Shown here: positions 41,534-62,053 of the stretch, one piece after another
Layout: every line of letters starts with the position of its first letter
How positions within the stretch are numbered: the first letter of the stretch is position 1
Source of the DNA: a virus
DNA: 64,000 nt
IMG/VR virus record: IMGVR_UViG_3300045988_161114
Location: 96,001-160,000 of that record
Reading direction: 5' to 3' (one strand)
Notes under the pieces: model-generated
The model's database searches: none
What the model saw: the letters and a program-made list of their open reading frames with translations, nothing else
Told to the model about the DNA's origin: nothing
Position numbers and translations under genes: made by a program

Positions 41534-41548
41534 TGTAGTAAAAGAAAA

Positions 41549-41577: not shown

Positions 41578-41607
41578 ATGATTAAATTCTTGTTGGAGGT
41601 AATAAAA

Positions 41608-41949: not shown

Positions 41950-42085
41950 CAATCATAAAAGAGTATGATTTTATATCATTTCTTATGGCTATTATTGTTA
42001 TACTATCAACAATAGGAATATTGTATATATTAGAGGCGGTAATAACTTTATTATTTAAGTTTCTTTTTTGTGTAGAGGTGTTGAT

Positions 42086-42346: not shown

Positions 42347-42349
42347 AAA

Positions 42350-43620: not shown

Positions 43621-43626
43621 TTATTT

Positions 43627-43658
43627 AAATATCGACTTTAGTGTCGATATTTTATTGA
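43627..43658 (+). repeat. hairpin + T-tract cassette copy 11
   Basis: AAATATCGAC tttagt GTCGATATTT, then TATTGA. 33 nt upstream of ATG 43685. Confidence 0.7.
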
Positions 43659-43684
43659 TTTATTTTTATTAGTTTGGAGTAATT

Positions 43685-43807
43685 ATGCCACTATTTATTG
43701 AGTTAGTTCAAATTCTTTTAATTGTTATTGTTCTTTTTTGCATATTTTGTATGATTATCTTGACTTGTATTATTATTAAAAGTTTATATGATATTTATTT
43801 TAAATAA
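43685..43807 (+). CDS. hydrophobic peptide (40 aa)
   Basis: TTTGGAG RBS + 6 nt + ATG, directly after cassette 11. MPLFIELVQILLIVIVLFCIFCMIILTCIIIKSLYDIYFK. Confidence 0.55.
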   Translation: MPLFIELVQILLIVIVLFCIFCMIILTCIIIKSLYDIYFK

Positions 43808-43834
43808 CAAGAATATATTTGAATGGCAATATAT

Positions 43835-43867
43835 AAGGTCGGCACAATAGTGTCGACTTTTTATTGA
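43835..43867 (+). repeat. hairpin + T-tract cassette copy 12
   Basis: AAGGTCGGCAC aata GTGTCGACTTT, then TTATTGA. Confidence 0.7.
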
Positions 43868-43892
43868 TTAAATTTTATCCTGCGGGTCTATT

Positions 43893-43967
43893 ATGATTAA
43901 GTTCATAGAAAATATGACATTGAATCAATACATGAAATTCTATGTCTTCCTTATTTTATTAATCTAA
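43893..43967 (+). CDS. possible 24-aa peptide
   Basis: ATG lies 33 nt after cassette 12, the usual spacing, but there is no clear RBS. MIKFIENMTLNQYMKFYVFLILLI. Confidence 0.25.
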   Translation: MIKFIENMTLNQYMKFYVFLILLI

Positions 43968-43980
43968 GAAAGGGTTAATT

Positions 43981-44094
43981 ATGGGACTTGAAACAGCTAT
44001 TACAGTATACATGTCTGTACTGTTTGTCATCATGTTTTTAGGATGGTTAGCATTTACTGTCCTGGAAGGTTTTTTATTACAAAAGAAAGGATAA
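43981..44094 (+). CDS. hydrophobic peptide (37 aa)
   Basis: GAAAGGG RBS. MGLETAITVYMSVLFVIMFLGWLAFTVLEGFLLQKKG. Confidence 0.5.
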   Translation: MGLETAITVYMSVLFVIMFLGWLAFTVLEGFLLQKKG

Positions 44095-44097
44095 GTC

Positions 44098-44460
44098 ATG
44101 ATTGGGCTTATTGTATTTGGATCACTAGTGACTAGTGTTGCCATTATTTCTATTTTGGCTAAGGCATCGCCGAAATTATTAAAACGTGTATTGGGATATG
44201 AAGCCTATGTTGATTTAGCATTTTCATTGCTGATTGGTATGGCTTGCGGTTTTTCTGGTACTATGTCCGGTTTCGTAATTGGTGCAGCTACTGGTCTGAT
44301 TTTTGGTGTTACTCTTTTTATTCTTGCGCGGGTTTATGGTTATGCTTGTTATGAAAAGCAGGAAGATGGTACCTATAAATGGGTTGAATATGAACCCAAG
44401 TTCAAGATCTCCAATTGGCTGTCTAAATATACCAATAAAAATATTGGTAAGTTTGCATAA
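44098..44460 (+). CDS. multi-TM membrane protein (120 aa)
   Basis: AAAGGA RBS. Three hydrophobic segments. Confidence 0.7.
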   Translation: MIGLIVFGSLVTSVAIISILAKASPKLLKRVLGYEAYVDLAFSLLIGMACGFSGTMSGFVIGAATGLIFGVTLFILARVYGYACYEKQEDGTYKWVEYEPKFKISNWLSKYTNKNIGKFA

Positions 44461-44523
44461 GGTTTCATCATGACATTTTATCTTTTGTATTTGTTTTTAA
44501 TTTCCATCTTTTAAGGTGAAAGT

Positions 44524-44766
44524 ATGAAAAAGTATTTCATTGGTGCATCAACTATTGCACTTGCTCGTCTGCTTTATAAGAAAGATGGTAATATCTCTCT
44601 TACTAAAGTTTGTGCTATTCTTGGCATTTCTGTTTTTGTTATTTTGTATGCCCCGGGCGTACTTGAATTTTTTGTAACATTAGCAGTATTAGCTGTTTTT
44701 GGCTATGTTGCTTTTGGTATTGTTAAAGCTGTTATGGACGGCAGCTTGTCAAAAATTTCTAAATGA
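44524..44766 (+). CDS. two-TM membrane protein (80 aa)
   Basis: AAGGTGAAAG RBS. Hydrophobic segments CAILGISVFVILYAPGV and LAVLAVFGYVAFGIV. Confidence 0.7.
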   Translation: MKKYFIGASTIALARLLYKKDGNISLTKVCAILGISVFVILYAPGVLEFFVTLAVLAVFGYVAFGIVKAVMDGSLSKISK

Positions 44767-44815
44767 TAATTTCTCATTAATGATATATCATTTATATTTT
44801 GATCTTAAAGTTTTT

Positions 44816-44847
44816 GGAAATCGACCTTAGTGTCGATTTCTTTTTGA
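44816..44847 (+). repeat. hairpin + T-tract cassette copy 13
   Basis: GGAAATCGAC cttagt GTCGATTTC, then TTTTTGA. 39 nt upstream of ATG 44880. Confidence 0.7.
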
Positions 44848-44879
44848 TTATTTTTATTTTAATAGAAAAGGATTTTGTT

Positions 44880-45095
44880 ATGCTTCCATTTGATTATAAA
44901 AAAGCTTTGAGTGGCCGTCATTTATGCAAGCTTAAGAATGGTATGTATGCAATTTTATATGCCGATATAAGCAATGATCCTCGTATTCCTAATGAACATG
45001 AATCCCCTTTATTAGGTATCGTATTTAACCTTGATAAAGTGTCATATCCTCAGCATTGGACTCTTTCAGGTAGATTTAAAGTCAATAGTGATTAA
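44880..45095 (+). CDS. hypothetical protein (71 aa)
   Basis: AAAAGGA RBS + ATG 44880. Ends at a TAA that is in frame with the next ORF. Confidence 0.6.
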   Translation: MLPFDYKKALSGRHLCKLKNGMYAILYADISNDPRIPNEHESPLLGIVFNLDKVSYPQHWTLSGRFKVNSD

Positions 45096-45125
45096 AACAT
45101 TATTGGAATTCTTGACCCCCATGAA

Positions 45126-45329
45126 TTGGACACTGTTGATGCGATCAGAATTTTAAAAGAGGCTTGCAAATCTAAAATGCCGGTACAATGGGATGGCTGT
45201 CTAATTGATAAGCCTCTTACTGTTGAAGAAGTGTATCCTAGTGGAAATTTTAAGCTGTCTTTTGGTAAATGGGTATATAATACCGACGGAAGCGAACTTC
45301 CGAATATTCGTATTGTTCATAAGGAGTAA
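45126..45329 (+). CDS. ORF in frame with the preceding gene; no ATG or RBS (67 codons)
   Basis: Same frame as 44880-45095, separated by a single TAA (45093-45095) plus 10 sense codons. TTG start only. Confidence 0.35.
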   Translation: MDTVDAIRILKEACKSKMPVQWDGCLIDKPLTVEEVYPSGNFKLSFGKWVYNTDGSELPNIRIVHKE

Positions 45330-45331
45330 CT

Positions 45332-45481
45332 ATGGTTGCACGTCCCAATTTAAAAATTCCACTACTGACAGTGCTCTCATTGATTCTGAAAAAGTATCTG
45401 ATGCTGGCGTTAAATCTGATCCTCGTGATGAATCAAATTTTGATAAACCTAAGGACGGTACATTTATTAAGCCTGAAATGA
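45332..45481 (+). CDS. alternative 49-aa hydrophobic ORF
   Basis: Best RBS in the region (AAGGAG + 5 nt + ATG). Its TGA overlaps ATG 45478 (ATGA). It conflicts with the hydrophilic reading of the overlapping frame. Confidence 0.35.
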   Translation: MVARPNLKIPLLTVLSLILKKYLMLALNLILVMNQILINLRTVHLLSLK

Positions 45482-45801
45482 TTGTTGATTTTCATGGCAA
45501 ATATTTTGTTACAGATCGTGGAATACAGGTTTATGTAGATGCCAGATATTGTCATCATAAATGGCGGTATGAAGGCAGCTCTATACAGAAAGGTAAAGAA
45601 AAATTTGACATTTGGGATGTTAATGGATATTCTCCTGATTCTGGTACTATTGTTGGTTTTAGTGATAGCAGCAAATACAATGCAGCGCATTGGGATGTTC
45701 CTAAGCATTGGAAAGAATATACCGATTACCATAAAACTGATTGGGAAGAAATTGGGTTTCTTGAACACAAGAAACGCCAAGAGCGTTACTCCATGAATTG
45801 A
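45478..45801 (+). CDS. hypothetical protein (107 aa core; the frame is open upstream to 45205)
   Basis: MIVDFHGKYFVTDRGIQVYVDARYCHHKWRYEG... The start is ambiguous. Confidence 0.55.
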   Translation: MIVDFHGKYFVTDRGIQVYVDARYCHHKWRYEGSSIQKGKEKFDIWDVNGYSPDSGTIVGFSDSSKYNAAHWDVPKHWKEYTDYHKTDWEEIGFLEHKKRQERYSMN

Positions 45802-45805
45802 TTAT

Positions 45806-45840
45806 AAAAGTTGACACAATAGTGTCAACTTTTTTTTTGG
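45806..45840 (+). repeat. hairpin + T-tract cassette copy 14 (compensatory variant)
   Basis: AAAAGTTGACAC aata GTGTCAACTTTT + TTTTTGG. TCGA is changed to TCAA with a matching TTGA in the 5' arm. Confidence 0.75.
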
Positions 45841-45862
45841 TTAAAATATTTTGGAGTCTATC

Positions 45863-46366
45863 ATGGATTTAATTGAAACTATCAAAGAAATGAATAAAGA
45901 AATGGCTGAAAAGTTTCCTGAAATAAATTATGGAGGCTGCGGTAAATCATCTTTTACTTTGTTTAATCTTCTTTCAAAGATAAAAGGTGTATCAAATGTT
46001 GGCATATCAGTAACTTGGTATAGAGATAATCATGATTGCGGTTATAATAAAATTCGTAAAATAAAAATTACAGACGATAATGTTATGCGCTGTATCGATA
46101 GCCACGATTGGGATCATATTATGGTTAAATTCAAATATAATGGAAAAGTTTATTATGTCGATCCATTAAGAATTGTTCATGTAAAAGATCTCAAATCTAA
46201 TAATTTAAATGCTCATTATGGCACTGTCAATGCTAATAGTATTATATATATTATCCGTAAATCAGGCGTTATTTGGAATTGGATATGGACTTCTGTTAAA
46301 AAAGATAATGAAGCCCGTCTTGTTATGAAAAAGTATTTGAGACCACATTTTAAGAAAGGAAAATAA
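45863..46366 (+). CDS. hypothetical protein (167 aa)
   Basis: TTGGAG RBS + 6 nt + ATG 45863. Confidence 0.7.
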   Translation: MDLIETIKEMNKEMAEKFPEINYGGCGKSSFTLFNLLSKIKGVSNVGISVTWYRDNHDCGYNKIRKIKITDDNVMRCIDSHDWDHIMVKFKYNGKVYYVDPLRIVHVKDLKSNNLNAHYGTVNANSIIYIIRKSGVIWNWIWTSVKKDNEARLVMKKYLRPHFKKGK

Positions 46367-46367
46367 A

Positions 46368-46793
46368 ATGTCACCAGAAAAGTTTAATTTCTTTTATCGG
46401 ACTAATATCAAGTCCTATGAAAGATTTCTATCGACTATCAAGTTGAGCAATAAAATATTTGCTCAGCAAGAAAAAGCTTTGAATAAAGTATACTTTAGTC
46501 CTGCAAACTTTTTATACCCTAAATTATGGTTTAATTATTCTTTAAGTAATGATCTTTACTTTTTGAATAATGGTTTGTATTTTGAATCTCTGAAAATGAT
46601 CGAATATTTTGGAATTAGTGATGATAATCCTATTCCAAAATGTGACTTGAAAGCATTTATGCTTAGTGAGAACATTTCAAAGAATGCTAAAGGACGTATG
46701 CGTCACTTTTATGATATTCTTTGCCGCATTCATAATGAAATTCAAAGATTTAAATCTTTTAAATTTGATTGCTATCCAGAATCCTGGTTCTGA
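46368..46793 (+). CDS. hypothetical protein (141 aa)
   Basis: AAAGGAAAATAAAATG: RBS and start abut the previous stop. Confidence 0.7.
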   Translation: MSPEKFNFFYRTNIKSYERFLSTIKLSNKIFAQQEKALNKVYFSPANFLYPKLWFNYSLSNDLYFLNNGLYFESLKMIEYFGISDDNPIPKCDLKAFMLSENISKNAKGRMRHFYDILCRIHNEIQRFKSFKFDCYPESWF

Positions 46794-46800
46794 TTTAAAA

Positions 46801-46833
46801 ATGTTCGGCACATTAGTGTCGAATATTTTTTGA
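46801..46833 (+). repeat. hairpin + T-tract cassette copy 15
   Basis: ATGTTCGGCAC atta GTGTCGAATAT, then TTTTTGA. Confidence 0.7.
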
Positions 46834-46860
46834 TTAAAATCATTTTATTTGGAGTATGGT

Positions 46861-47172
46861 ATGTCTAGTTTTAAAAAGTTTGCAGTAGAATCATTGATTC
46901 CTGCTGTTATTACTGGTGTTTTTGCCATTGCTATTTTGGGTTTGCTTTTCTATTGGGCTTTAAATGCTACGCCGCGCCCGAAAGATAAAAAAGACAATCC
47001 AGTAAAACTTGAAAAAGTTGAAAAGCCTTTAACTGGAGTAAAGAACCATTTTTCTATTGATGGTTATAAATTCACTTCAACAAATGTTTGCATTGATGGT
47101 AAACAAATTCTTTTTGTACAGCAATTTGCAAAAGATTTTGTTGTACTTAACCTTAATGAACCCTGTAAATAA
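46861..47172 (+). CDS. N-terminal TM protein (103 aa)
   Basis: TTTGGAG RBS + ATG 46861. LIPAVITGVFAIAILGLLFYWAL. Confidence 0.7.
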   Translation: MSSFKKFAVESLIPAVITGVFAIAILGLLFYWALNATPRPKDKKDNPVKLEKVEKPLTGVKNHFSIDGYKFTSTNVCIDGKQILFVQQFAKDFVVLNLNEPCK

Positions 47173-47184
47173 CGGAGACTTTAA

Positions 47185-47520
47185 ATGAAAAAATTGGCTA
47201 TCGTAATTGCCGCATCTTTCGTATTAACTGCCTGTAACCCTTTTAAAGGCGAAACAAATAATCGTATGTATATCAATTCAAATTATTGGATTGAATCATA
47301 TGTTGATCATGATAAAACTGTCTATCAAGAATGTGTAAATGATATGGTTCCCGGCAAAGAGGCAAAAGCTTTGTGCCGCCCAATTGACAAATCTCATTTT
47401 GAAGATATGCAATATCAGCATATTAATCACTCTATTGAGATGTCTAAAGCTGTAGATCGCAAAAATGATCGTGCAATTACAGCATTGGAACAATTGCCTG
47501 ATAAAAAGGCTTCTGAATAA
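47185..47520 (+). CDS. lipoprotein (111 aa)
   Basis: MKKLAIVIAASFVLTAC: signal peptide with lipobox L-T-A-C. ACGGAG RBS. Confidence 0.75.
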   Translation: MKKLAIVIAASFVLTACNPFKGETNNRMYINSNYWIESYVDHDKTVYQECVNDMVPGKEAKALCRPIDKSHFEDMQYQHINHSIEMSKAVDRKNDRAITALEQLPDKKASE

Positions 47521-47530
47521 AAGTTAAAAA

Positions 47531-47565
47531 TAATCGGCGCGATATTAGTGTCGATTATTTTTTGA
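47531..47565 (+). repeat. hairpin + T-tract cassette copy 16
   Basis: TAATCGGCGC gatatta GTGTCGATTA (2 G-T), then TTTTTTGA. Confidence 0.7.
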
Positions 47566-49218: not shown

Positions 49219-49528
49219 TGCATTAAATTGCATAAATTGACGTAAAAAGCAATCAAAATTTGTATGCATCTATTTATATCGGGTTTACATTCGGTATAAG
49301 TGGTGCATACAAAAACAAAACTTTGTAGAATATTGAAATATAAAGAAATATTCTTATGTAAAAGTTTATTAAGAAGTGTATGCAATTTAAATAGCTCAAT
49401 AAGCATGTAGTCATGCATCGGGTATATCAAACGACTTTTTTAACTGGGCCAAAGCATATTTTGTGTACATTTCTTAATGAGCTTTTGCTCATTTATTGCC
49501 GTAAAGGTGATATTTATTAAGATCGTTT

Positions 49529-49560
49529 GGACGCGGGTTCGACTCCCGCCAACTCCACCA
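49529..49560 (+). ncRNA. ssrA: tmRNA acceptor-piece 3' end (T-arm + acceptor 3' strand + ACCA)
   Basis: GGAC GCGGG TTCGACT CCCGC CAACTCC ACCA, nearly identical to the E. coli SsrA 3' end as I recall it. Confidence 0.85.
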
Positions 49561-49677
49561 AAAGACATTTCAAAGATGTTGATACTCTGAAAAGAGTTAG
49601 CGATTCCATATAGCCTATTTTTAACCCTATTACATTATTGCGATTGAGTTAAAATGTCTTATGAGATGTCTTCTGAT

Positions 49678-49760
49678 GGGGTTGTAATGGAATTCGACAG
49701 GCGGTGAATAGGGATATTGCTCGGCACGAGTTGCTTCGTAAAAGCAAAATTAAAATAAAT
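49678..49760 (+). ncRNA. ssrA: tmRNA coding-piece 5' region (acceptor 5' strand, D-analog, PK1-like)
   Basis: GGGGTTG pairs 7/7 with CAACTCC, including G3-U. TAATGGAATTCGAC. UUGCUU...GUAAAAGCAA pseudoknot-like pairing. Confidence 0.75.
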
Positions 49761-49799
49761 GCAAACGATGATGTTTACATGGTACGCGCCGCTGCCTAA
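49761..49799 (+). other. tmRNA tag reading frame ANDDVYMVRAAA + UAA
   Basis: AAAAUAAAU|GCA AAC GAU GAU GUU UAC AUG GUA CGC GCC GCU GCC UAA. Same context as the E. coli resume codon (..AUAGUC|GCA AAC GAC..). Confidence 0.6.
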
Positions 49800-50032
49800 T
49801 TTAGGTAGTTGAGCATAAATGTACAGGGTTTGGACAGTACCTGGTAACAGAAACTGTCCGAGAATTCTAACACTGCGGCTAGTGCACAGTGAGTTTCGTA
49901 ATCGTCTACGATTGGGTAGAGCTGGAATCGTAACCAGCAATTATAAAAGAGTAAATATGTTTGGGCATACCTAGTAACCAACTAGTGAAATTTAAACAAG
50001 CATATATTTTGTGGAAATAACTTAACCATATA

Positions 50033-50886: not shown

Positions 50887-51078
50887 ATGGTTGTATGTGT
50901 TTGTAATAATGTTAGCACCAACACGATCAATAAAGATTATATTGATTTAAATAAAAGTGTTGATGATCTTATTATTGACACAGGTGCAACTATGTGTTGT
51001 GGAAAATGTGCTGATTATATTAATTGTATGTTTTCTGAAAAAGTTTTGTTAGTGCCATCTCTCCAACTGGACTCCTAA
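50887..51078 (+). CDS. bfd: BFD-like [2Fe-2S]-binding protein (63 aa)
   Basis: MVVCVCNNVSTNTI...GATMCCGKCADYI matches the CxC...CxxC pattern and spacing of bacterioferritin-associated ferredoxin. GAGGA RBS. Confidence 0.7.
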   Translation: MVVCVCNNVSTNTINKDYIDLNKSVDDLIIDTGATMCCGKCADYINCMFSEKVLLVPSLQLDS

Positions 51079-51173
51079 GGGTATGATGTTCTGCCCTCAT
51101 ATGGTATTATCATATGTTGCCTATTTTTAATAGGAAGAACAAATTCTTTTTTAATCATTATGGAGGATTAAAG

Positions 51174-51590
51174 TTGAAGAAGAAAATACTTGCTATACTA
51201 TTAGCACTACCATCTGTTAGTTTTGCCAAAGAAATTAAATGTTTATCAGAAATGGCTTACTATGAGGCTCGCGGCGAAGGCACTCATGGTATAAAAGTTG
51301 TTACAGATGTAATGTTTAATAGAATGAAAAGCAATCAATTCCCTGATGGAGTTTGTGCTAATTTTAGAAAAAGTGGTCAATATTCTACGGCTAAAATGGC
51401 CGGAGGAAGAAAAGACCAAGAGTTGTATAAAAAGGTTTCAGAACAAGTTGAATCTGAATATGCCAAATATCGTTTAGGTGATTGGCAAGACTCTACTAGT
51501 GGAAGTCTTTATTTTAATTCTAATGGATCACGTCCATCCAATAAAGTAAAATTTAAAGGGAAACGTGGAAGACATTTTCTTTATGGATAG
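51174..51590 (+). CDS. secreted SleB/CwlJ-type cell-wall hydrolase (endolysin candidate, 138 aa from TTG)
   Basis: GGAGGA + 6 nt + TTG 51174 gives the signal peptide MKKKILAILLALPSVSFA. LSEMAYYEARGEGTHGIKVVTDVMFNRMKSNQFPDGVC...GQYS is the Hydrolase_2-type motif. Confidence 0.7.
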   Translation: MKKKILAILLALPSVSFAKEIKCLSEMAYYEARGEGTHGIKVVTDVMFNRMKSNQFPDGVCANFRKSGQYSTAKMAGGRKDQELYKKVSEQVESEYAKYRLGDWQDSTSGSLYFNSNGSRPSNKVKFKGKRGRHFLYG

Positions 51591-51597
51591 TTTTAGT

Positions 51598-51632
51598 AGC
51601 CTAGCACTTATGTGTTAGGCTTTCTTGTTTTT
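51598..51632 (+). terminator. intrinsic terminator
   Basis: AGCCTAGCAC ttat GTGTTAGGCT (1 G-T) + TTCTTGTTTTT. Confidence 0.75.
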
Positions 51633-51661
51633 ACAACAATGTTCTCAGAAAGGACACAAAG

Positions 51662-54600
51662 ATGTACATTCGCTTAAAAGACATTCCAGTAATTGATGCT
51701 GATGCTACAGTTGCGGAGGTTTATGAAATTTATTCTAAACAGTTGCCACAGGATCCAAGACTTAATTGGAAACTGTTGCAAGATCGTATTGCAATGGAAA
51801 TTGTAAATGAGATTTCTGAACCGACTACAATTGAGATTCCTAAATCTTTTTATGATCTCAAATTGAATTGGCCTGAATTTTTGTTTGCAACCAAACATAT
51901 TGACAGCAGTTCTGACATTGAATTGATGAGTCATCATGAACTTATGTTTATGATGTTGTATGAACGCCTTGAATCTTTGTTCAAGTATGATCAACTCTTT
52001 ACTGAATTGATTCGCAAAGACATCAATTATGTCAAGAACCATGTATTGTATGTAACAAGTAATGCATACAATGCTGCTTTGAAAGAATCTTCTGAACTTG
52101 TTATTATTTCTCCTTATAATGAGTACAGTAAAGTTTTGACATATTTGCATCAAGATAAAGTTATGGGCGACGCATTGCCCATGTTGTTTAATCCATCCGA
52201 TCGTGCTATTAAGACTTCTGCATTATATTTTAATGTATTGCCCGGAAGTGAATCAATGCTTGCTGAATCTAATAAAATTATCATTTCTAAAAACGGTAAA
52301 GAGTTTCAGGCTCCTGGATTCCAAGTATTTAAAGATGAAAACGGTGGCTTTGTAGGTTATTCAAGTTTGTTCAAAGTTGGACAGTCTTTGCCTGCCCGTT
52401 TCAAGACTCATCTTAATGGTAATGCATTTGGTGTAAGCAATCCTTCTAAGTTCATCTTTTTACAGGATGCAATTGAAAAGGATGGTGAATTAATCACTAA
52501 GGATAATACCTTAGTTGATGCAGTAATGGTTTATAACGATATTGAATTGGAATCGTATCGTTTAGTAGGCGGCGAAATTGAAGTATCGCCTAAAGTAGGC
52601 AAAGAAATTGTGTTCACTCCTCGTCATATTGAAACTGAATTTGATGAGATTGATGTAAAAGTTGGACAGACTATTTACAGCAAAGGTGGGTACATTAAAA
52701 TTGGTTCACGTGGCGGTGAAGCAATTTATATCGAAATGGTAGACCATATTCAGGTTACTTCTATTGAAGAATCGGGATATAATGGGTCCGCCCGCATTGA
52801 TTATATTGCCTACTATAAAGCTGGTAATGCCCGTATTACAAGCCAAACTGGCTTGAAAGGTGTTACTAAAACTATGCGCAGTTGTGGCAAAATCAAGATT
52901 CATGAAGATGGCAAAGAAGATAAAATCATCGACGTGGATATTGTAGCTGGTATTAATAGCCTTAAAGGTAAAATGAATACTATTCGTCTTGCTCAAGCAG
53001 CTTTTGCATTTAAATATGGCTATTATACCAATGATAAAGATTACCTCGACAGTCTTAATGAAGAGGAAATCAATGCCGCTGTTGCGTCATTGCCTACTGC
53101 AACTTATGAAAAACGTATTAAACGTGTTGATGGTTATGATGATGAAATTATTGTAATTGAAAACGTTAAATACGGCCTGGTTCAGTATTCTTACACTGAA
53201 TTGGGTAGCCATTTTGCTAAGATTAAGAATCAAGGCATGTCATTTAATTGTTTGAAATATATTTGTCAAACAACAGATTCATCTCTTGGACAATATATTT
53301 TAGATAATTGTATTGATAAATCTGATAAGCAAATTGTTGAAGAATTGGCAAAAATCTTGTCAGATGAAGGTCATGTATTTGAATACGCTGATAATTATCC
53401 GTCATATACATTGATTGAATTGAAGTCAATGTTTAATGAACAGGACTTAATCTTGAGTCGTTCTGCTATTATTCCTACTAGCAGTAAATTGTTGGATCCT
53501 GAATTCAATAAAGGTTTCTATATCGACTTAAGTAAGGTTCGTTCTGGTACAAGTATTCGTGTACCATCTGCAGAGATTTTAAATAAATTCTGCGGTAAGC
53601 AAAATGATGGTCAATATGTATATCCAACTATGCTTATTGAATTGTCTAAAATCATTCGTGCAGCAATTGCTGGCCCTAGCCAGTATTTTACTATTGCGCC
53701 GCATCGTAATGAACGTAATCATAAGCGTCCTTCCGCATGGAATGGCTATTTGAATGCAATTAAATCAATGCTGTATCGTACTGAATTAGGTGGTCAAACT
53801 TATGTTAAATCACTTATTCAGCCAAGTCTCAAAGGTGTCAACCTTAAACAGGTTCATGATAAATATGTTCCTGAAGGCAAAGTCGTAATTCTTGATCGTA
53901 ATATTCTTGAGAGTATTCGTGAGTATATTTATGGCAAGCCTAATAATAAGACAACTGAAGAGGCAATGCTTGACCAGTTCCGTCCATTAAATGCATTTAC
54001 TTTGCGTAATCCGTTTTTATGGCGTTCACAGATGATTATTTCCCAACTTTGGGGAATTGATGAATTCAATGATTATCTTCAGGAGAATTATGGAATGACT
54101 GTCAATGATTATCTGGATGTACAGGGAAATCTGCATTGCGCTTTGATTTCTACTGAAATTGTAAGACGTAGCCATAGCGACAATGATGGCGACTTATTGC
54201 AAATTAGTTCAATACCAGGAATTGAGCAACAAGAAATGATGGCTCAATTCAAATTGGAATACTTTACTGAAGATCAAAAACAGTGGGATGAAGACTTCTT
54301 GTTGTCTGAGTATTCATCTATTGAAGATGTTGATTGGAGTAAAAAGTACGAATTGTATTATGTTCCAATTTATCCTAAGCATCCTGGTGATAATGCTTAT
54401 ATGGAATTTCTATGTTCATCAGCTATGGCTAAGAATGCAGTTGGTCCTGGTACAAATGATGCATGGGTATTTTACATGTTAGTTCAGCTGTATTATGGAC
54501 TGGCGCGTGATAATGATCCTAAATCGTATGTACCTTGGGAACGTAAACGTAAAGTACAACTTCGTATTAAAGAAGAAGACTTGTTTACTTATGACCATAT

Positions 54601-55048
54601 TTATACAATGGTTCTTGAAAATCGTGTAATTAATGCGATTAAACATGTGTCAGGTGGAGCTAGCTCTCATGCTGTCTTCTACCTCAAAAACATGACAAAA
54701 GACGACAAGAGTGTTAAAAAGGTAATTAAAAGTATCGAGAATGACTTAGGTTATTCAAGAGAAGTTGCCGTTTCTATTTGTCGTATTGTAAATTGGGCAG
54801 TTAATACCAATGCACTTGAAATGTGTAATAAGTTTTTACGCATGCACAATAAAGGTGCCCTAGTTGATCTAGGTGATGCGGATATTCAGATGTGGTTTAA
54901 ACACATTGTTGATTATACGTTCTTTGGCAGTATGCTTGCACCGATTTTTACCATTTATGGTCAAAGTCAAGGATTAATTCCTTTAGGCGAAAATGCAGAA
55001 AATAATGTGGCCGAAGTTATGGACACTTTTGACGCAATTGGTTTTTAA
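51662..55048 (+). CDS. single-chain two-barrel (beta-like + beta'-like) RNA polymerase candidate B (1128 aa)
   Basis: Beta-like AGNARITSQTGLKGVTKTM and IIDVDIVAGINSLKGKMNTIRLAQA. Beta'-like LRNPFLWRSQMIISQLW...HCALISTEIVRRSHSDNDGDLLQI, with the Asp triad at nt 54179-54193. Confidence 0.7.
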   Translation: MYIRLKDIPVIDADATVAEVYEIYSKQLPQDPRLNWKLLQDRIAMEIVNEISEPTTIEIPKSFYDLKLNWPEFLFATKHIDSSSDIELMSHHELMFMMLYERLESLFKYDQLFTELIRKDINYVKNHVLYVTSNAYNAALKESSELVIISPYNEYSKVLTYLHQDKVMGDALPMLFNPSDRAIKTSALYFNVLPGSESMLAESNKIIISKNGKEFQAPGFQVFKDENGGFVGYSSLFKVGQSLPARFKTHLNGNAFGVSNPSKFIFLQDAIEKDGELITKDNTLVDAVMVYNDIELESYRLVGGEIEVSPKVGKEIVFTPRHIETEFDEIDVKVGQTIYSKGGYIKIGSRGGEAIYIEMVDHIQVTSIEESGYNGSARIDYIAYYKAGNARITSQTGLKGVTKTMRSCGKIKIHEDGKEDKIIDVDIVAGINSLKGKMNTIRLAQAAFAFKYGYYTNDKDYLDSLNEEEINAAVASLPTATYEKRIKRVDGYDDEIIVIENVKYGLVQYSYTELGSHFAKIKNQGMSFNCLKYICQTTDSSLGQYILDNCIDKSDKQIVEELAKILSDEGHVFEYADNYPSYTLIELKSMFNEQDLILSRSAIIPTSSKLLDPEFNKGFYIDLSKVRSGTSIRVPSAEILNKFCGKQNDGQYVYPTMLIELSKIIRAAIAGPSQYFTIAPHRNERNHKRPSAWNGYLNAIKSMLYRTELGGQTYVKSLIQPSLKGVNLKQVHDKYVPEGKVVILDRNILESIREYIYGKPNNKTTEEAMLDQFRPLNAFTLRNPFLWRSQMIISQLWGIDEFNDYLQENYGMTVNDYLDVQGNLHCALISTEIVRRSHSDNDGDLLQISSIPGIEQQEMMAQFKLEYFTEDQKQWDEDFLLSEYSSIEDVDWSKKYELYYVPIYPKHPGDNAYMEFLCSSAMAKNAVGPGTNDAWVFYMLVQLYYGLARDNDPKSYVPWERKRKVQLRIKEEDLFTYDHIYTMVLENRVINAIKHVSGGASSHAVFYLKNMTKDDKSVKKVIKSIENDLGYSREVAVSICRIVNWAVNTNALEMCNKFLRMHNKGALVDLGDADIQMWFKHIVDYTFFGSMLAPIFTIYGQSQGLIPLGENAENNVAEVMDTFDAIGF

Positions 55049-55056
55049 AGCATAAG

Positions 55057-55100
55057 AAAGAGAGGCACGAAAGTGTCTCTCTTTTTATTTTTTTATTTTT
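55057..55100 (+). repeat. hairpin + T-tract cassette copy 19 / terminator after RNAP-B
   Basis: AAAGAGAGGCAC gaaa GTGTCTCTCTTT (GGCAC/GTGTC core with the same G-T), then TTATTTTTTTATTTTT. 30 nt upstream of ATG 55114. Confidence 0.75.
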
Positions 55101-55821: not shown

Positions 55822-56352
55822 ATGTATAAAGAGATTATTGTTTACAAAGATTGTAGTTTTGAATTGAAAATAAATGGCAACATTGTATATTCTATGTTTA
55901 TAAAAGATAAAAATGCAATGACCAGGACATATAGAGTTCTTGCTCCGCATGTTGATCGCATATGCAATATTTTGCTTTCATCAAATCTTAATGCACCATT
56001 ATTTAATATAAAGATTGATATGTTGCAACAAAGTAATACTACTGGATTAAAAGAATATTGTATTACCTTTAATTATCAAGATAAGAATTTAATCAATAAA
56101 GGGTATGGTAATCATCCGGATATTTTACTTGGTCCTCAATATTTCAGAGTAAAATCTGTTACTTGCCCAGAATTAAAAGCAGGTGAAGGAATTTTGTTTA
56201 CTTTAGGTGATAGGCTTAATCATAATTCTACAAAGTGTGTTATTCAACATGTTGCTACACAAGAAAAGCTATTCAGAACTGTAAAACGTCTTAATGAGAC
56301 ACCTGCTATTGAAATTATATTTAATCATTTGCAATATTATTCATTTGGATGA
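55822..56352 (+). CDS. tandem paralogue 1 of 4 (176 aa)
   Basis: Shares size, the N-terminal I-x-Y-x-x-x-K/x-F-x-I...I-V/I-Y-S/T-Y pattern and the C-terminal S-V-x-CPE...ILF..G motif with the next three ORFs. Confidence 0.7.
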   Translation: MYKEIIVYKDCSFELKINGNIVYSMFIKDKNAMTRTYRVLAPHVDRICNILLSSNLNAPLFNIKIDMLQQSNTTGLKEYCITFNYQDKNLINKGYGNHPDILLGPQYFRVKSVTCPELKAGEGILFTLGDRLNHNSTKCVIQHVATQEKLFRTVKRLNETPAIEIIFNHLQYYSFG

Positions 56353-56358
56353 TAAGGT

Positions 56359-56886
56359 ATGTTTGAAATAGTATATGAAGAAAATAAATATTTTGCTATA
56401 GAAAATAATTATAAAGTAATATATACATATCCTTCTAATATTAAAAATGAAGATATGGATATATCAAAACAGTATTTATATAGATTGAAATACGGTCTTG
56501 ATAATACTGAAGAATTGTCTTCTATTTTTTTAAAAATTGATTCAAATAAACCATTTTTACAATCTCTTCATTCAATTGATGGCGATCATATTAGTTTTCA
56601 AATTTTAAAGCAAAATGATTTTATTAGAGGTAGTTTTCTTTTGCCTATTTTTATAGGTAAAGAAAGATACGAAAAAATAAGTGTAGAAAGTGTTGCATGC
56701 CCTGATGTTAGTTTTAACAATATATATTTGCGTGGAACTAGCATAGATAGAGATAGAGTTAAGATATATAAAAAGATTAACCCTATTCAGGCAAAAATTG
56801 TAATGAAAATACTTGACGATTTAAATACAAAAAGTGTTCATCAGGTTTTCTTAGACTCATTAAGCGGAATGTATAAAAAGCTTTAA
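56359..56886 (+). CDS. tandem paralogue 2 of 4 (175 aa)
   Basis: MFEIVYEENKYFAIENNYKVIYTYPS...VESVACPDVSFNNIYLRGT. TAAGG RBS. Confidence 0.7.
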   Translation: MFEIVYEENKYFAIENNYKVIYTYPSNIKNEDMDISKQYLYRLKYGLDNTEELSSIFLKIDSNKPFLQSLHSIDGDHISFQILKQNDFIRGSFLLPIFIGKERYEKISVESVACPDVSFNNIYLRGTSIDRDRVKIYKKINPIQAKIVMKILDDLNTKSVHQVFLDSLSGMYKKL

Positions 56887-56897
56887 GGGAGACTATT

Positions 56898-57464
56898 GTG
56901 AGATTAGATATATTTTATAAAAAGGATAAATTCTTTTTTATAACACGAGATAAAGATATTATTTATATCTATCCTAGTGATTATATTTTGACTAAACAAG
57001 ATGTAGATACATCTATTCGGGTTTATAAAAACTATAATACGAGTGGCGACTTTTATGAATATGAAAATTTTATTAAAGCGATTTTATTTTGGGATAACAA
57101 TAAGAAGACTTTAGTTTCTAAACAATCATTTTATAAAAATAAAGATGATAAAAGTGATATAATTGAATTTGAATTAATCGAACAAGACTCTCTATTGTAC
57201 CAATTTTATTTTTCATTTGATACCGATATTGTTGGTGTAGAACGAATTATTTTTTCTTCTAGACTACATGTGGATATATATCCTTATGCTATATTTTTAA
57301 AAGGTACAAATAGTAATAATTGTGATACGAAAGCTAAGCATTACTTTTCTGATGAAAGATTAAAATCTGTCGCTAATGAAACGATAAGAGTTCTTGAATT
57401 AGCTAATAATCACCCTTTGCCTGAATTTGTATTTTTAACTTTATGTAAAGAAGCTTATAAATGA
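56898..57464 (+). CDS. tandem paralogue 3 of 4 (188 aa, GTG start)
   Basis: AAGGGAG RBS + GTG. MRLDIFYKKDKFFFITRDKDIIYIYPS... Confidence 0.65.
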   Translation: MRLDIFYKKDKFFFITRDKDIIYIYPSDYILTKQDVDTSIRVYKNYNTSGDFYEYENFIKAILFWDNNKKTLVSKQSFYKNKDDKSDIIEFELIEQDSLLYQFYFSFDTDIVGVERIIFSSRLHVDIYPYAIFLKGTNSNNCDTKAKHYFSDERLKSVANETIRVLELANNHPLPEFVFLTLCKEAYK

Positions 57465-57985
57465 GTTTTTCATTTTATGTAAAAAAGGATAAGGCATTTA
57501 AAGTAGCCTATAATGGTAAATTTATTTTTTCTTATTCCAAAGATGGGGTTGTAAATATTGAAGATTTTGATATGCAAATATTACCATCTTTTGGTTGGAG
57601 AGCTGTTACATTAATACAATTAGCTCTTAAAATGGGTATAAATGAAAAGTTTATCAATATTGGTTATCAATATGATGATTATGATGAAGGGCTTAGAATA
57701 AAAATTAATTATCAAAATGAAGCTGTTCGTGGATTATTGTTTGCATGTTATTACATTGATGGTCATAAAATTTATTTAAGATCTGCAAATAATCCTGAAA
57801 TTTCATTTGTTGGATATAATACTGTAGAATTTTTTGTAAGAGGAAAAGACCGATATGAAGATGATAGAGTAATCTTTTTGCCATGTTCTTGTGATAATGC
57901 AAGTAAAATAATTAAACATATTGATTTTCTTAATCATGCTACTATAGCTGAAATTTTATTAATGGATTTGTCAGCTAGATTTTAA
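57461..57985 (+). CDS. tandem paralogue 4 of 4 (174 aa)
   Basis: ATGA overlap with paralogue 3. MSFSFYVKKDKAFKVAYNGKFIFSYS... Confidence 0.7.
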   Translation: MSFSFYVKKDKAFKVAYNGKFIFSYSKDGVVNIEDFDMQILPSFGWRAVTLIQLALKMGINEKFINIGYQYDDYDEGLRIKINYQNEAVRGLLFACYYIDGHKIYLRSANNPEISFVGYNTVEFFVRGKDRYEDDRVIFLPCSCDNASKIIKHIDFLNHATIAEILLMDLSARF

Positions 57986-57998: not shown

Positions 57999-58439
57999 AT
58001 GTCTTGTACTGTATATTTATACACAGATGGAGCATGCAAAGGCAATCCTGGTCCTGGAGGATGGGGATACCTTTTGAAATGTGGTGAAAAATCTATACAT
58101 GATTCTGGTTCTGAAAAGGACACTACGAATAATCGTATGGAATTAATGGCGGTTATTAATGGCTTATCTAAGCTTAACCAATTTTGTAATGTAATCATTT
58201 CTACTGATTCCCAATATGTTAAAAACGGAATGGAAGAATGGATACATAATTGGAAAAAGAATGGCTGGAAAGGTTCCAATAAAAAACCTGTTAAGAATGT
58301 TGATTTATGGCAAAGGCTTGATACTTTAGTTCAAAAATTTAATGTTTCTTGGGAATGGGTTAAAGGTCATTCCGGCCATACTGAAAATGAATTTGTTGAT
58401 ACTCTAGCTAGCAATGCAGCAGAATCAATTAAGGATTAA
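57999..58439 (+). CDS. rnhA: ribonuclease HI (146 aa)
   Basis: YTDGACKGNPGPGGWG...TNNRMELMA...STDSQYV...WIHNWKKNGW...KPVKNVDLWQRL...WEWVKGHSGHTENE is close to E. coli RnhA along its whole length. Confidence 0.9.
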   Translation: MSCTVYLYTDGACKGNPGPGGWGYLLKCGEKSIHDSGSEKDTTNNRMELMAVINGLSKLNQFCNVIISTDSQYVKNGMEEWIHNWKKNGWKGSNKKPVKNVDLWQRLDTLVQKFNVSWEWVKGHSGHTENEFVDTLASNAAESIKD

Positions 58440-58628: not shown

Positions 58629-58659
58629 AGCACTAAGGTTTAATACCTTAGTGCTTTTT
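58629..58659 (+). terminator. intrinsic terminator
   Basis: AGCACTAAGG tttaata CCTTAGTGCT (10 bp perfect) + TTTTT. Confidence 0.8.
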
Positions 58660-58698
58660 ATGTTTGTGAATAATATTTTTTATAAGAATAATAATAAG

Positions 58699-59970
58699 AT
58701 GGCAATAAACACTGAAGAATTAAGACCGTATGCATATACGGATAGACAAAGATTTATATTGGACGCTATTGATCAATATGGCGGACAATTGCCTGCTGCT
58801 AAAGCATTGAATATTTCAAATGGAACTGTATCATCCCATTTAGCTGCTATTAGAAGAGCTAAAGAAGAGGCAAATATAGACGAAGCAATTCGTTCTAGAA
58901 TTAATGTTAATAAAATAGCTAAGACTGCTAAAGTCCTTACTAGTGATACATATTCTTTATCTGACAAAGTAAAAGAAATTGAAGGCAAACTTTTTAAAAA
59001 AGATATGTCTAAAGCAGAATTTTTAAATTCTAAATCTTCATCTACTTTGTATGATGCAAATGGCAATGTAAAATTACAATGGATTAAAACAGATTCTAAA
59101 GAATCTGCTATTGCAGAAACGATTAAATCTGCAATGGAAGAGTTTTACAATTTTGCTAAACCGGTATCAATACCAGTAGTACCGCGCCCTATTGTTGAAA
59201 ATAAATTGTTAGCACAATATACCATTACTGATTATCATCTTGGTATGTTTGCTGATATGTTTGAAACTCATGAAGGTAAACCTTGGAATACTGATATTGC
59301 TACTGCTAAATTAGCTGAAGTATTTGACAGAATGGTTAATGCCGCTCCTTATACTGAAAGAGCTGTTATTAATATTCTAGGTGATTTCTTACACTATGAT
59401 AGTGAGAAACCCGTAACACCAGCACATGGTCATATATTAAGTGCAGATGCACGTCCTGGCAAATTAATTAGATTAGCTATTAAATTGGTTAATCATGCTG
59501 TAATGAAAGTATTAGAGAAAGCTGAAAATGTTACTCTTATAATTTCCCAAGGTAATCATGACCCAATAAGTTCCTTATGGTTACAAAATTGTTTTGCATT
59601 TATGTATTCTGAAGAAGAAAACGTAGAAGTTGTTGTAAACTCTACACCTTGGATTGCATATGAATGGGGCAACACATTACTTGCTTATCATCATGGTCAT
59701 AGAATTAAAAAGTTGAGTGATATTGCAGTTAAGATTCCTAATCTATTTGCAGTTGAATGGGGCAATACAATATATCGTTATTGCCATGTTGGTCATCACC
59801 ATCATCAACACATTGAAGAAGTTGGCGGCATAATTATTGAACGTCATCAAACACTAGCACCAAATGATGATTATGCTAGTGGAATGGGATTAACATCTCA
59901 GAGAGGTGCAAATCTTATTATTTATTCCCAAGATCATGGTGAAATTTCTAGGATGACATTCCGACCATGA
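58699..59970 (+). CDS. N-terminal HTH + calcineurin-like metallophosphoesterase (423 aa from ATG 58699)
   Basis: HTH-like PAAKALNISNGTVSSHLAAIRRA. Phosphoesterase motifs TDYHLG, LGDFLHYD, QGNHDP, YHHGH, VGHHHHQH in canonical order. Confidence 0.7.
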   Translation: MAINTEELRPYAYTDRQRFILDAIDQYGGQLPAAKALNISNGTVSSHLAAIRRAKEEANIDEAIRSRINVNKIAKTAKVLTSDTYSLSDKVKEIEGKLFKKDMSKAEFLNSKSSSTLYDANGNVKLQWIKTDSKESAIAETIKSAMEEFYNFAKPVSIPVVPRPIVENKLLAQYTITDYHLGMFADMFETHEGKPWNTDIATAKLAEVFDRMVNAAPYTERAVINILGDFLHYDSEKPVTPAHGHILSADARPGKLIRLAIKLVNHAVMKVLEKAENVTLIISQGNHDPISSLWLQNCFAFMYSEEENVEVVVNSTPWIAYEWGNTLLAYHHGHRIKKLSDIAVKIPNLFAVEWGNTIYRYCHVGHHHHQHIEEVGGIIIERHQTLAPNDDYASGMGLTSQRGANLIIYSQDHGEISRMTFRP

Positions 59971-60577: not shown

Positions 60578-62053
60578 ATGAAAAAGACTTTTATTGCATT
60601 TGCTTTAGCCGCATTTATTACTCCTGCATTTGCTGTAAATACTACTTATGGTAGTGATCAAAATGTAGACGGTAATTATAATGTAACTACTGGTCAGAAA
60701 TTGATTGTTGCTGGTCAAGGCAATACAGTAACCGGAGTAGATATTATTACTGCCGGTGATTCTAATGTAGTATCCGGTATTCATAATATTGTTGATGGTA
60801 AAATCAATGTCGTATCTGGTCATAATGCTGCTGCAAAAGGCAACATGTCTGTAGCAATCGGTCAACGCGCTGAAGCTTACAATAGCATGGTTACTGCCGT
60901 AGGTTCTGACACTAAAGGTCTTGGTGAATCATCTGTAGCTCTTGGTAAGGGTGCTACAACTGGTGAAGAAGCTAAAGCTTCTACTGCAGTAGGTCCACAT
61001 GCTACTGCTATGTCTCCTTCTGCATTTGCTGGTGCTTTACATGCTTATGCTGGTGGTGCACAATCTGTAGCATTGGGTCAAAGCAGCCAATCTATGGGTG
61101 AAAAATCTACTGCCATTGGTTCTGGTGCACAAGCTTTGGAACGCTTCTCTACTGCTGTAGGTGGCAATGCTGTTGCTACCAATCAACATGATGTCGCTTT
61201 GGGTTTCGGTTCCAAAACAACTGGTGCTGTTGGCACTGCTACATCAGAAATTAATGGTGTTAAATATGGCACTTATGCCGGTCATCGCCCTACAAGCGAA
61301 TTAAGTGTTGGTAGTGAAGGCTGGGAACGCAATGTAACCAATGTTGCAGCCGGTCGTATTACTAAAACCTCTACCGATGCCGTTAATGGCAGTCAGCTTT
61401 TCGCCGTTGCTAATCAAGTTGGTGAAAATACCAAAGGTGTTGAAGCCAATAAGAAAGCAATTGCCGAATTGGGTGATGTTGTAGCTATTAATGCCGGCAA
61501 TATTGAAGCCAATACTCAACAAATCACTACTTTGAACCATACTGTTCAACAGCAAAACACTTGGAACGAAGCTCAAGATGGTCAAATCAATGAGCTGCAT
61601 GGCAATGTTGGTGTCAATTCTGAACGTCTGGATAATCTGACTGCTCTGGTTAAAGGTATGGGTGCTAACGAAGCAATCCTGCGTAAAGAAATGCACGATC
61701 TTCGCCGTGAATCTCGTGCCGGCATTGCTGGTGCTAATGCTATTGCTGGCATTCCGCAACCACACGCTCCTGGACAAACTGCATTTGGCGTTGGTGCTGG
61801 TTATTTCAAACACGAAGGTGCAGTAGCTTTGGGCGTTTCCCACATTTCCAACTCTGGTAAGTGGGTCACCAAGGCTGGTGTCAATTTTGACACCCGTAAA
61901 AATGTTGGTGCGACAATTGGTTTGAGTTATGTATTGGGAGGCGTTCCTGTTGTAGCTCCTGCTCCTGTTGTAATTCATAAAACTGAAGTTGTTGAAAAAG
62001 TAATCGTACGTGAAGTAGCGCCGGTTCCTGCACAAGTAAAAGTGCGTCAATAA
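60578..62053 (+). CDS. trimeric autotransporter adhesin, YadA-like (491 aa)
   Basis: Signal peptide MKKTFIAFALAAFITPAFA. Head repeats (SVALG.., STAIGSGA.., STAVGGNA..). Neck ERNVTNVAAGRITKTSTDAVNGSQLFAV. Coiled-coil stalk. Anchor AGIAGANAIAGIPQ...GVGAGYFKHEGAVALGVSH...GATIGLSYVLG. Confidence 0.9.
   Translation: MKKTFIAFALAAFITPAFAVNTTYGSDQNVDGNYNVTTGQKLIVAGQGNTVTGVDIITAGDSNVVSGIHNIVDGKINVVSGHNAAAKGNMSVAIGQRAEAYNSMVTAVGSDTKGLGESSVALGKGATTGEEAKASTAVGPHATAMSPSAFAGALHAYAGGAQSVALGQSSQSMGEKSTAIGSGAQALERFSTAVGGNAVATNQHDVALGFGSKTTGAVGTATSEINGVKYGTYAGHRPTSELSVGSEGWERNVTNVAAGRITKTSTDAVNGSQLFAVANQVGENTKGVEANKKAIAELGDVVAINAGNIEANTQQITTLNHTVQQQNTWNEAQDGQINELHGNVGVNSERLDNLTALVKGMGANEAILRKEMHDLRRESRAGIAGANAIAGIPQPHAPGQTAFGVGAGYFKHEGAVALGVSHISNSGKWVTKAGVNFDTRKNVGATIGLSYVLGGVPVVAPAPVVIHKTEVVEKVIVREVAPVPAQVKVRQ

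Follow-up and report, generated by a model that had tools for sequence, protein, structure and literature searches.

What does gene B, an unnamed open reading frame (ORF) in the genome of a large human-gut phage, encode, and does the same genome carry a second gene of the same kind? The gene lies within IMG/VR record IMGVR_UViG_3300045988_161114, positions 96,001 to 160,000, a 64-kb stretch (the window, in whose own numbering all positions below are given unless another sequence is named) of a phage genome of ~185 kb (a 184,711-bp human-gut metagenome contig). Comparison of the window with deposited phages at the DNA level gives no match. An earlier reading, made from the letters and ORFs alone (the sequence-only reading), had claimed that B is a single-chain RNA polymerase (RNAP) containing the two double-psi β-barrels (DPBBs) of multisubunit enzymes, and that an upstream gene, A, encodes a divergent paralogue. 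The fold class of B, the conservation of its catalytic residues, its family, and its synteny are documented here; from the fold search and the invariant catalytic motifs we infer that B is a two-barrel RNAP and, as regards catalysis and type of template, that it is probably an active, DNA-dependent enzyme made of a single polypeptide.

51662-55048, + strand: gene B, 1,128 amino acids (aa), ATG start, no internal stops, stop codon included in the coordinates

Insight into the nature of B comes from its predicted structure. The AlphaFold2 (AF2) model built from the family alignment has a mean predicted local distance difference test score (pLDDT) of 84.7 and a predicted template modelling score (pTM) of 0.81. 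When this model was compared by Foldseek with 350,542 PDB chains and the best 50 matches were considered, all of them were large subunits of multisubunit RNAPs. In particular, β/Rpb2 chains are at the top (Mycobacterium tuberculosis 8eos_C, 2e-6; Pol II 8b3d_B, 7e-5; African swine fever virus (ASFV) 8xxp_B, 1.3e-4), and β'/Rpb1 chains come next (Thermus aquaticus 4xln_D, 2.3e-4, then Thermus, yeast, archaeal, and ASFV enzymes). Among viral predicted structures (BFVD), the best matches are two exon products of Acinetobacter phage ME3, which is considered below; these are followed by unnamed large phage proteins and by RNAPs of nucleocytoplasmic large DNA viruses (NCLDVs), poxviruses, and baculoviruses, and there are weak full-length matches to segments of crAss-like phage proteins (cr118_1, cr116_1).

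The second line of evidence is the pattern of conservation within the family. An alignment of 16 B-family sequences, in which identity falls as low as 26%, has its most conserved columns in the motifs that the sequence-only reading had quoted; R391, G397, K399, K435, R782, P784, L786, W787, Q790, S839, and D840 are invariant, and D842 is near-invariant, two sequences ending there through intron truncation.

52820-52876, + strand: β-like barrel motif 1, AGNARITSQTGLKGVTKTM, aa 387-405; R391, G397, and K399 invariant
52925-52999, + strand: β-like barrel motif 2, IIDVDIVAGINSLKGKMNTIRLAQA, aa 422-446; K435 invariant, N432 and N439 near-invariant
54002-54052, + strand: β'-like barrel motif, LRNPFLWRSQMIISQLW, aa 781-797; R782, P784, L786, W787, and Q790 invariant; split site 1 in relatives
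54170-54199, + strand: catalytic loop SHSDNDGDLL, aa 837-846; S839 and D840 invariant; predicted Mg2+ site; split site 2 in relatives
54398-54508, + strand: candidate bridge helix, aa 913-949, a predicted 37-residue helix with AMAKNAVGPGTND; split site 3 in relatives
54626-54658, + strand: VINAIKHVSGG block, aa 989-999, conserved in the B-family alignment, with Lys-His kept
54989-55045, + strand: disordered C-terminal tail ...MDTFDAIGF, aa 1110-1128; pLDDT <50

These motifs have counterparts in the Escherichia coli enzyme. A local alignment places B 391-439 (RITSQTGLKGV...VDIV...KMN) on β 1065-1108 (KMAGRHGNKGV...VDIV...RMN), so that R391 and K399 correspond to β K1065 and K1073 with the same 8-residue spacing; aa 781-797 correspond to β' NRAPTLHRLGIQAF, and the best hhalign placement on β' puts B 836-864 onto 456-484, the NADFDGD loop, an alignment that is not significant by itself. 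Thus, RpoB/RpoC and B have in common, in the same order, K/R-x7-KGV, VDIV...[KR]MN, R-x-P-x-L-[HW]...Q, and DxDGD, although B has only ~40% of the combined length of RpoB and RpoC (1,128 versus 2,749 aa) and is a single chain with no α, ω, or σ partners evident. After the β'-like barrel, the AF2 model has the helix of aa 913-949, which carries AMAKNAVGPGTN and has a conserved AK..VG..TN motif; its position makes this helix a candidate for the bridge helix, and the VINAIKHVSGG block (aa 989-999) is, again by position, a candidate base of the trigger loop.

A published filter for β'-type barrels, [RK]xPx{20,100}DxDxD (PMC10770324, Suppl. Data 4), finds its target at the homologous site in all 14 of the full-length B-family members (in B, R782-N-P784 ... 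D840-N-D842-G-D844, with aa 781-797 providing the [RK]xP element). An ordered signature that also includes the β-like half, [RK]x7KG[VI] ... [RK]xP x20-100 DxDGD, is present in B (391-844) and in A (305-785), and this β-then-β' order occurs in 5e-5 of composition-preserving shuffles of B or A; together with the conservation in the family alignment, this frequency argues that the motifs of B are not due to chance. On its modelled fold, its DxDxD and [RK]xP elements, and its basic pair, B thus appears to belong to the two-barrel superfamily. Its N-terminal half would form the β-type barrel, in which R391 and K399 would contact the substrate, holding the RNA 3' end and the phosphates of the nucleoside triphosphate. 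The β'-type barrel would be formed by the C-terminal half, which has R782-N-P784-x-L-W and a loop, S839-D840-x-D842-G-D844, that would bind the catalytic Mg2+; RNA would be made on DNA through two-metal catalysis at D840/D842/D844.

Several points weigh against this assignment. No sequence method ties B to any known RNAP: scans of B against Pfam (E<=10), PHROGs, and NCBIfam gave nothing, nor did a Pfam scan of eight distant family members, a phmmer search and a B-family profile search of PDB sequences returned only noise, and hhalign of the B family against the single RpoB and RpoC sequences of E. coli fell short of significance. The Foldseek TM-scores are only 0.15-0.17, which is attributable to the fact that each target covers just part (half) of the fused protein. 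The presence of two DPBBs is deduced from the matches of the model to both subunit types, the motifs, and the local alignment. Finally, the solved single-chain relatives, φ14:2 gp66, QDE-1, and the P23-45 enzymes, are not among the best 50 Foldseek matches.

With these points in view, the sequence-only reading of B stands up well. Its ORF and four quoted peptides (starting at aa 387, 422, 781, and 825) are as described, its Asp triad D840/D842/D844 does lie at nt 54179-54193, and its identification of B as a single-chain two-barrel RNAP agrees with both the fold search and the invariant motifs. Its label of a minimal multisubunit-type enzyme is a reasonable one for B, given that the PDB matches are cellular and NCLDV β/β' chains.

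How widespread is such a protein? A search of 5.8 billion proteins yielded 21 relatives of B, all of them lacking both a Pfam domain and an informative name, while an exhaustive hidden Markov model search of 1.84 billion representatives yielded 196 B-family members (at 50% identity), 98 of them at E<1e-30. A single 90%-identity cluster of B holds 236 sequences, on contigs of ~180-186 kb from human-associated metagenomes. All named members of the B and A clusters are labelled "hypothetical protein", no description or name of either family was found in the literature, and the text supplementary files of PMC10770324, including the list of viruses with multiple RNAPs, contain neither ME3 nor Acinetobacter.

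Many B-family members are fragments (among them P0017, P0018, P0102, P0109, P0202, P0211, P0237, and P0242), and their ends pile up at three positions of the profile. The fragment termini place the breaks at RNPF|LW, SDxD|GD, and AKxAVG|PGTN, the three most conserved blocks of the β'-like half, and in some relatives mini-exons of ~57 aa lie between two introns. Site 1 of Acinetobacter phage ME3 (NC_041884.1; L001 8277-9615) is occupied by a group I intron (RF00028, 51 bits, E 1.4e-11), with an endonuclease ORF, gp153, inside it, between gp152 (...VRNPS*) and gp154 (...SLWRTQL...HSDVDGD). With a group I intron between them, gp152 and gp154, each annotated as a hypothetical protein, form the two exons of a single RNAP gene. 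It is usually in those codons of essential genes that are under the tightest constraint that homing elements insert. Consequently, the location of the intron and split sites on the catalytic motifs provides an independent argument that these sites are functional.

If B is an RNAP, is A a second one? Gene A lies upstream, on the same strand.

33146-36496, + strand: gene A, 1,116 aa, recognized from its ORF, its invariant motifs, and hhalign to the B family
34058-34090, + strand: A motif R305-x7-K313-G-V, invariant in the A family
35333-35503, + strand: A motif K730-Y-P732 ... D781-F-D783-G-D785; K730-x-P732 ... D781-x-D783-G-D785 invariant in the A family

The A family consists of 56 clusters in two clades, and a profile search with it finds no further members, which leaves it too narrow to be aligned in depth. 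Pfam, PHROGs, and NCBIfam scans of A gave nothing, and PDB sequence and profile searches only noise; the AF2 model of A has a pLDDT of 36.6, so a fold search with it would be meaningless. BLASTP of A against B gives no significant match (the second-best high-scoring segment pair, E 2.4, pairs the β-like motifs, which is not evidence alone). However, when the A family is compared with the B family by hhalign, the probability is 91.8% and E 7.2e-7 over 255 columns, with B 735-1044 placed on A 702-966. The DxDGD loops, the AK..G..TN (AK-x-x-G-x-x-TN) blocks, and the [IM]KH..G blocks are in register, B VINAIKHVSGG being aligned with A AISQMKHENRG, of which M910, K911, and H912 are invariant in the A family. 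For the β-like halves the comparison is not significant (E 0.13), although the KGV motifs are in register in the top alignment. The distant B-family matches P0160 and P0187 show no link to family A.

The homology of the β'-like halves and the invariant signature make A likely to be a second two-barrel RNAP, a remote homologue of B. The proposal of two such enzymes in one phage is thus supported, though less firmly than the assignment of B, and the motif order said to be common to A and B is found in both. Two observations that could have gone otherwise also agree with it: the structure search for B gave both subunit types, and profile homology between A and B was found. The word paralogue is too strong, because BLASTP is blind to the likeness of A and B; they are remote homologues, and a duplication within this lineage is not supported. 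(A link through a 24-nt repeat common to the 3' end of A and a 479-aa ORF was considered and dropped, there being no similarity at the protein level.)

The two genes form a conserved pair. In a sister clade, in which both an A-like and a B-like protein are found on 187,720-bp contigs, the B-like protein has 47% identity and the A-like protein 30%; local synteny is kept, and the loci of the A-like and B-like genes join in collinear order (74-83% nucleotide identity), which puts the genes ~16 kb apart. Within the window's own clade, identities to the window copies on matched genomes are 94.1-94.5% for B and 87.5-87.6% for A, which makes the rate of evolution of A about twice that of B. ME3 has the B homologue and no detectable A, so B can apparently work without A.

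Composition also separates the two genes. B has a GC content of 0.352 and a GC content at third codon positions (GC3) of 0.273, versus 0.421 and 0.418 for A, and the major capsid gene has a GC3 of 0.37; the contrast between an AT-rich B and a GC-richer A in the sequence-only reading is therefore real (GC3 0.27 versus 0.42). Codon usage of B is like that of the small-gene region and unlike that of the capsid gene, while A resembles the major capsid gene. The block at 33000-41600 that contains A together with 311-aa and 479-aa ORFs has a GC of 0.40-0.44 and a GC3 of 0.34-0.42; the rest of the window is mostly at 0.28-0.36, only the major capsid gene being comparable to this block.

The genome is laid out in two arms. 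A minus-strand arm (888-26164) contains the major head protein, portal, and large terminase; at its inner end (24776-26164, - strand) is a 462-aa ORF with an intein (Intein_splicing 5e-15, Hint 4e-7), a feature also present in the sister clade (L005 2220-3548). The plus-strand arm has, in order, A (its third gene, after 111-aa and 269-aa ORFs), 16 hairpin cassettes, B, an RNase H, and an SbcD-like nuclease. As the sequence-only reading had it, A and B bracket the cassettes: A ends at 36496, the cassettes occupy 36563-47565, and B starts at 51662.

36563-47565, + strand: 16 hairpin cassettes, ...CGGCAC-loop-GTGTCGAY + TTTTTTGA; 18 matches versus 0.66 expected
57999-58439, + arm, 3' of B: RNase H
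58651-59970, + arm, 3' of B: SbcD-like exonuclease

All cassettes are on the plus strand, mostly 23-38 nt 5' of a start codon led by a Shine-Dalgarno sequence, and GTGTCGAY is followed by a T-tract ending in TGA. The first lies 67 nt after the A stop, and there are none 5' of A. Hairpins, with GTGTCGA as the 3' arm, are predicted for 15 of 17 cassettes; an argument that they are promoters, on the grounds of sequence conserved without structure, was therefore withdrawn. The sister clade has a variant of the cassette, GTGTCGGTNNTTTTNTGR (L005 13525-22574, L003 692-9968), one copy of which lies 33 nt 5' of the B-like start. From their sequence, the cassettes may serve this transcription system as terminators, promoters, or both. 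T4-type phages have mobile regulatory cassettes that resemble them. A parallel is also found in phage P23-45, which has conserved motifs at the terminators of its early region (PMC10770324).

Gene B itself has the following flanking signals.

51598-51633, + strand: hairpin AGCCTAGCAC-TTAT-GTGTTAGGCT plus T-tract, 5' of B; terminator scan, ΔG -10.8 kcal/mol
51650-51654, + strand: Shine-Dalgarno sequence AAGGA of gene B, 7 nt 5' of the ATG, read from the sequence
55055-55096, + strand: strong intrinsic-terminator-like hairpin with a 14-bp stem (55055-55086) plus T-run, directly 3' of the B stop; terminator scan

The upstream hairpin proper (51598-51621) ends 41 nt 5' of the B ATG and has the CAC-loop-GTG design of the cassettes; it is terminator-like and would be the terminator of the preceding gene, for a SleB-type cell-wall hydrolase. 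A scan for σ70-type promoters around B was uninformative (25 sites versus 31.4 in shuffles). Directly 5' of B (50887-51590, + strand) are genes for a 63-aa BFD-like [2Fe-2S] protein and for the SleB-type hydrolase, which has a hydrophobic N-terminal segment; the order hydrolase, then B, is kept in the sister clade (L003 8557-9021). Directly 3' of B (55822-57985, + strand) are four tandem ORFs of 174-188 aa, apparently an array of diverged paralogues, which have 18-21% identity each to the first, N-terminal and central blocks in common, and no Pfam match. In the ORF-poor gap between the cassettes and B (49435-49861, + strand) is a permuted, two-piece transfer-messenger RNA (tmRNA) gene (RF04321, 115.8 bits; RF01849, 104.8 bits) with the tag peptide ANDDVYMVRAAA (ARAGORN). 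Farther 3' of B (60578-62053, + strand) is a YadA-like trimeric autotransporter adhesin whose head, stalk, and membrane-anchor domains are above the Pfam cut-offs; it is kept in the sister clade (L003 16336-18129) and hints at a Gram-negative host.

A and B also end alike, in acidic/hydrophobic-Phe tails: ...LNDMGF in A (36476-36493) and ...FDAIGF in B (54989-55045), with ...SLFSMF, ...DLLSF, and ...IDIDFL in B-family relatives. Such a tail is found in only 4 of 76 window ORFs, one of which is the 111-aa ORF at 31785-32120, ending in EEDDEIPF (32097-32117). We take this last tail to resemble the C-terminal tip of single-stranded DNA-binding protein (SSB), although Pfam does not recognize the ORF as an SSB. 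It may be speculated from these endings that A and B use their tails to dock on a common partner.

How would two such enzymes divide their work? By analogy with P23-45 and φKZ/AR9, a temporal or a virion/non-virion split is plausible. The tentatively preferred assignment is that B is an early, non-virion enzyme and A its partner, possibly delivered in the virion. B would then be made early and would transcribe the middle and late genes, including the minus-strand structural arm, while A would act on the cassette-rich region that starts 67 nt after its own stop. This role for B is favoured by its small early-type gene neighbours, the adjoining RNase H and SbcD-like genes, the sister-clade cassette 33 nt 5' of B, and the CAC-loop-GTG hairpin 41 nt 5' of B in the window; that for A is favoured by its faster evolution, its capsid-like codon usage, the lack of a cassette upstream, and the presence of cassettes right after it. 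Three points weigh on the other side. The third place in the plus-strand arm would suit an early or a late gene equally, the cassettes have the look of intrinsic terminators and are not necessarily promoters, and GC3 may reflect the history of a gene rather than its expression.

The first of these points leads to an alternative that is less likely, though it deserves consideration, in which the roles are reversed or there are three tiers, as in a T7- or N4-like cascade. Here B would be packaged in the virion or be the earliest enzyme, and A would be an early product of host RNAP reading the cassettes. After the 111-aa and 269-aa ORFs, A does stand at a typical place for an early gene, and the cassettes begin right after it; B, moreover, is more conserved and more widespread than A, as its presence in ME3, where A is undetectable, illustrates. 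On the other hand, a cassette lies directly 5' of B in the sister clade, B in the window sits among small early-type and replication/repair genes, and its codon usage is that of the small-gene region and not that of the capsid gene, observations that favour the early, non-virion assignment of B but are not decisive.

It is improbable that B is a two-barrel polymerase put to another use, either making replication primers or acting as an RNA-dependent RNAP (RdRP) of the QDE-1/YonO branch. The RNase H and SbcD-like genes that flank B, the jumbo phages without primases noted by Iyer et al. (PMC7824862), and the inclusion of RdRPs and PolD in the two-barrel superfamily would accord with such a use; however, the best 50 PDB matches of B are subunits of DNA-dependent RNAPs only, with no QDE-1 or PolD chain among them, and its β-type R/K-x7-KGV and VDIV...[KR]MN blocks match cellular β. 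That B is a degenerate, catalytically dead scaffold or structural protein, as its lack of detectable sequence similarity to known RNAPs and its low TM-scores might suggest, is scarcely credible when neither the 196 representatives nor the 16-sequence alignment reaching 26% identity shows variation at the catalytic positions (D842 near-invariant), homing introns sit precisely on catalytic codons of the family, and the 94% identity of B within its clade indicates strong purifying selection. Two other enzyme types were rejected for B: a T7-like right-hand RNAP, since there is no Pfam RNA_pol (PF00940) match at E<=10 and no T7-like structure among the best 50 Foldseek matches, and a split enzyme of the φKZ/AR9 type, since B is one uninterrupted ORF of 1,128 aa with both barrels.

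Where, then, does B stand among known enzymes? No relatives of the universal transcription enzyme are smaller than the single-chain two-barrel RNAPs, of which, to our knowledge, few families have been characterized: YonO, crAss gp66, and P23-45 gp64/gp96. One of the closest parallels to the A/B pair is the tailed Thermus phage P23-45, which has two single-polypeptide two-barrel RNAPs that are remotely related, as are A and B: gp96, a virion protein fused to the tape measure, and gp64, a non-virion protein (PMC10770324). In both, DPBB-B (β-like) precedes DPBB-A (DxDxD), the order seen in B; the virion RNAP transcribes the pre-early genes, including the gene for the non-virion RNAP, and crystal structures of both have been reported (PMC10770324). 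Searches of the PDB with the A- and B-family profiles (E<=10) found no solved RNAP chain, the inclusion of the P23-45 chains being unconfirmed. Unlike gp96, A and B carry no tape measure fusion, and both lie outside the structural arm; P23-45 also differs from the window phage in host environment (here the human gut) and genome size (here ~185 kb).

The enzymes of Bacillus prophage SPβ (YonO; PMC5467207) and of 0305φ8-36 and c-st (PMC7824862) are, like B, single chains of ~100-130 kDa with both barrels; YonO-like enzymes and B alike have no accessory subunits and are undetectable by standard domain libraries. YonO has been placed in an RdRP/QDE-1-like clade without the sandwich-barrel hybrid motif (SBHM) "flap" (PMC7824862). 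The best structural matches of B are cellular and NCLDV β/β' chains. The crAss-like φ14:2 gp66 (bioRxiv 10.1101/2020.03.07.982082; PDB 6VR4) is another single-chain two-barrel RNAP, of gut-phage type, found, as was B, only by motif and structure. It is, however, part of a virion protein of ~2,180 aa in a structural block, whereas B, at 1,128 aa, has early-type genes as its neighbours, and 6VR4 is not among the best 50 PDB matches of B.

Phages φKZ and AR9 have two sets of two-barrel RNAP per genome, with a temporal split and independence from host RNAP (PMC7598289, PMC4666361). Their RNAPs are nearer to cellular β/β' than to YonO (PMC7598289, PMC4666361). In these phages β/β' is spread over 4-5 polypeptides, in contrast to A and B, which are each one chain of ~1,100 aa and have no sequence similarity to them. 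The splits in B-family relatives are intron insertions (shown at ME3 site 1), unlike the separate subunits of the φKZ type. The phages for which Iyer et al. list two-barrel RNAPs are confined to group 1 jumbo phages, 0305φ8-36, and c-st (PMC7824862). Single-chain two-barrel RNAPs, even two in one phage, are therefore already known, and B is a new, previously unnamed family among them.

B adds an abundant family to the few single-chain two-barrel RNAPs that have been characterized, and the cultured phage ME3, with its intron-split B homologue, provides an immediate experimental handle. Its size of 1,128 aa and its confident model make B attractive for studying the mechanics of transcription in a minimal system. 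With the conserved A/B pair there is a second, independent example of a phage with two single-chain enzymes, in which promoter and terminator logic can be compared, and recognizing A and B genes would improve the annotation of large gut phages and flag those that are likely to be partly or fully independent of host RNAP. A bolder and unlikely extension would be that A and B constitute a complete two-enzyme programme, independent of host RNAP, in a widespread clade of ~185-kb human-associated phages, with A as an injected, fast-evolving reader of the cassettes and B as an unseen lineage of minimal β-β' fusion, structurally nearer to cellular RNAP than to the YonO/QDE-1 branch. Should this unlikely view be true, B would be a drastically reduced RNAP of cellular type or else a relic intermediate with a bearing on the origin of the two-subunit catalytic core.

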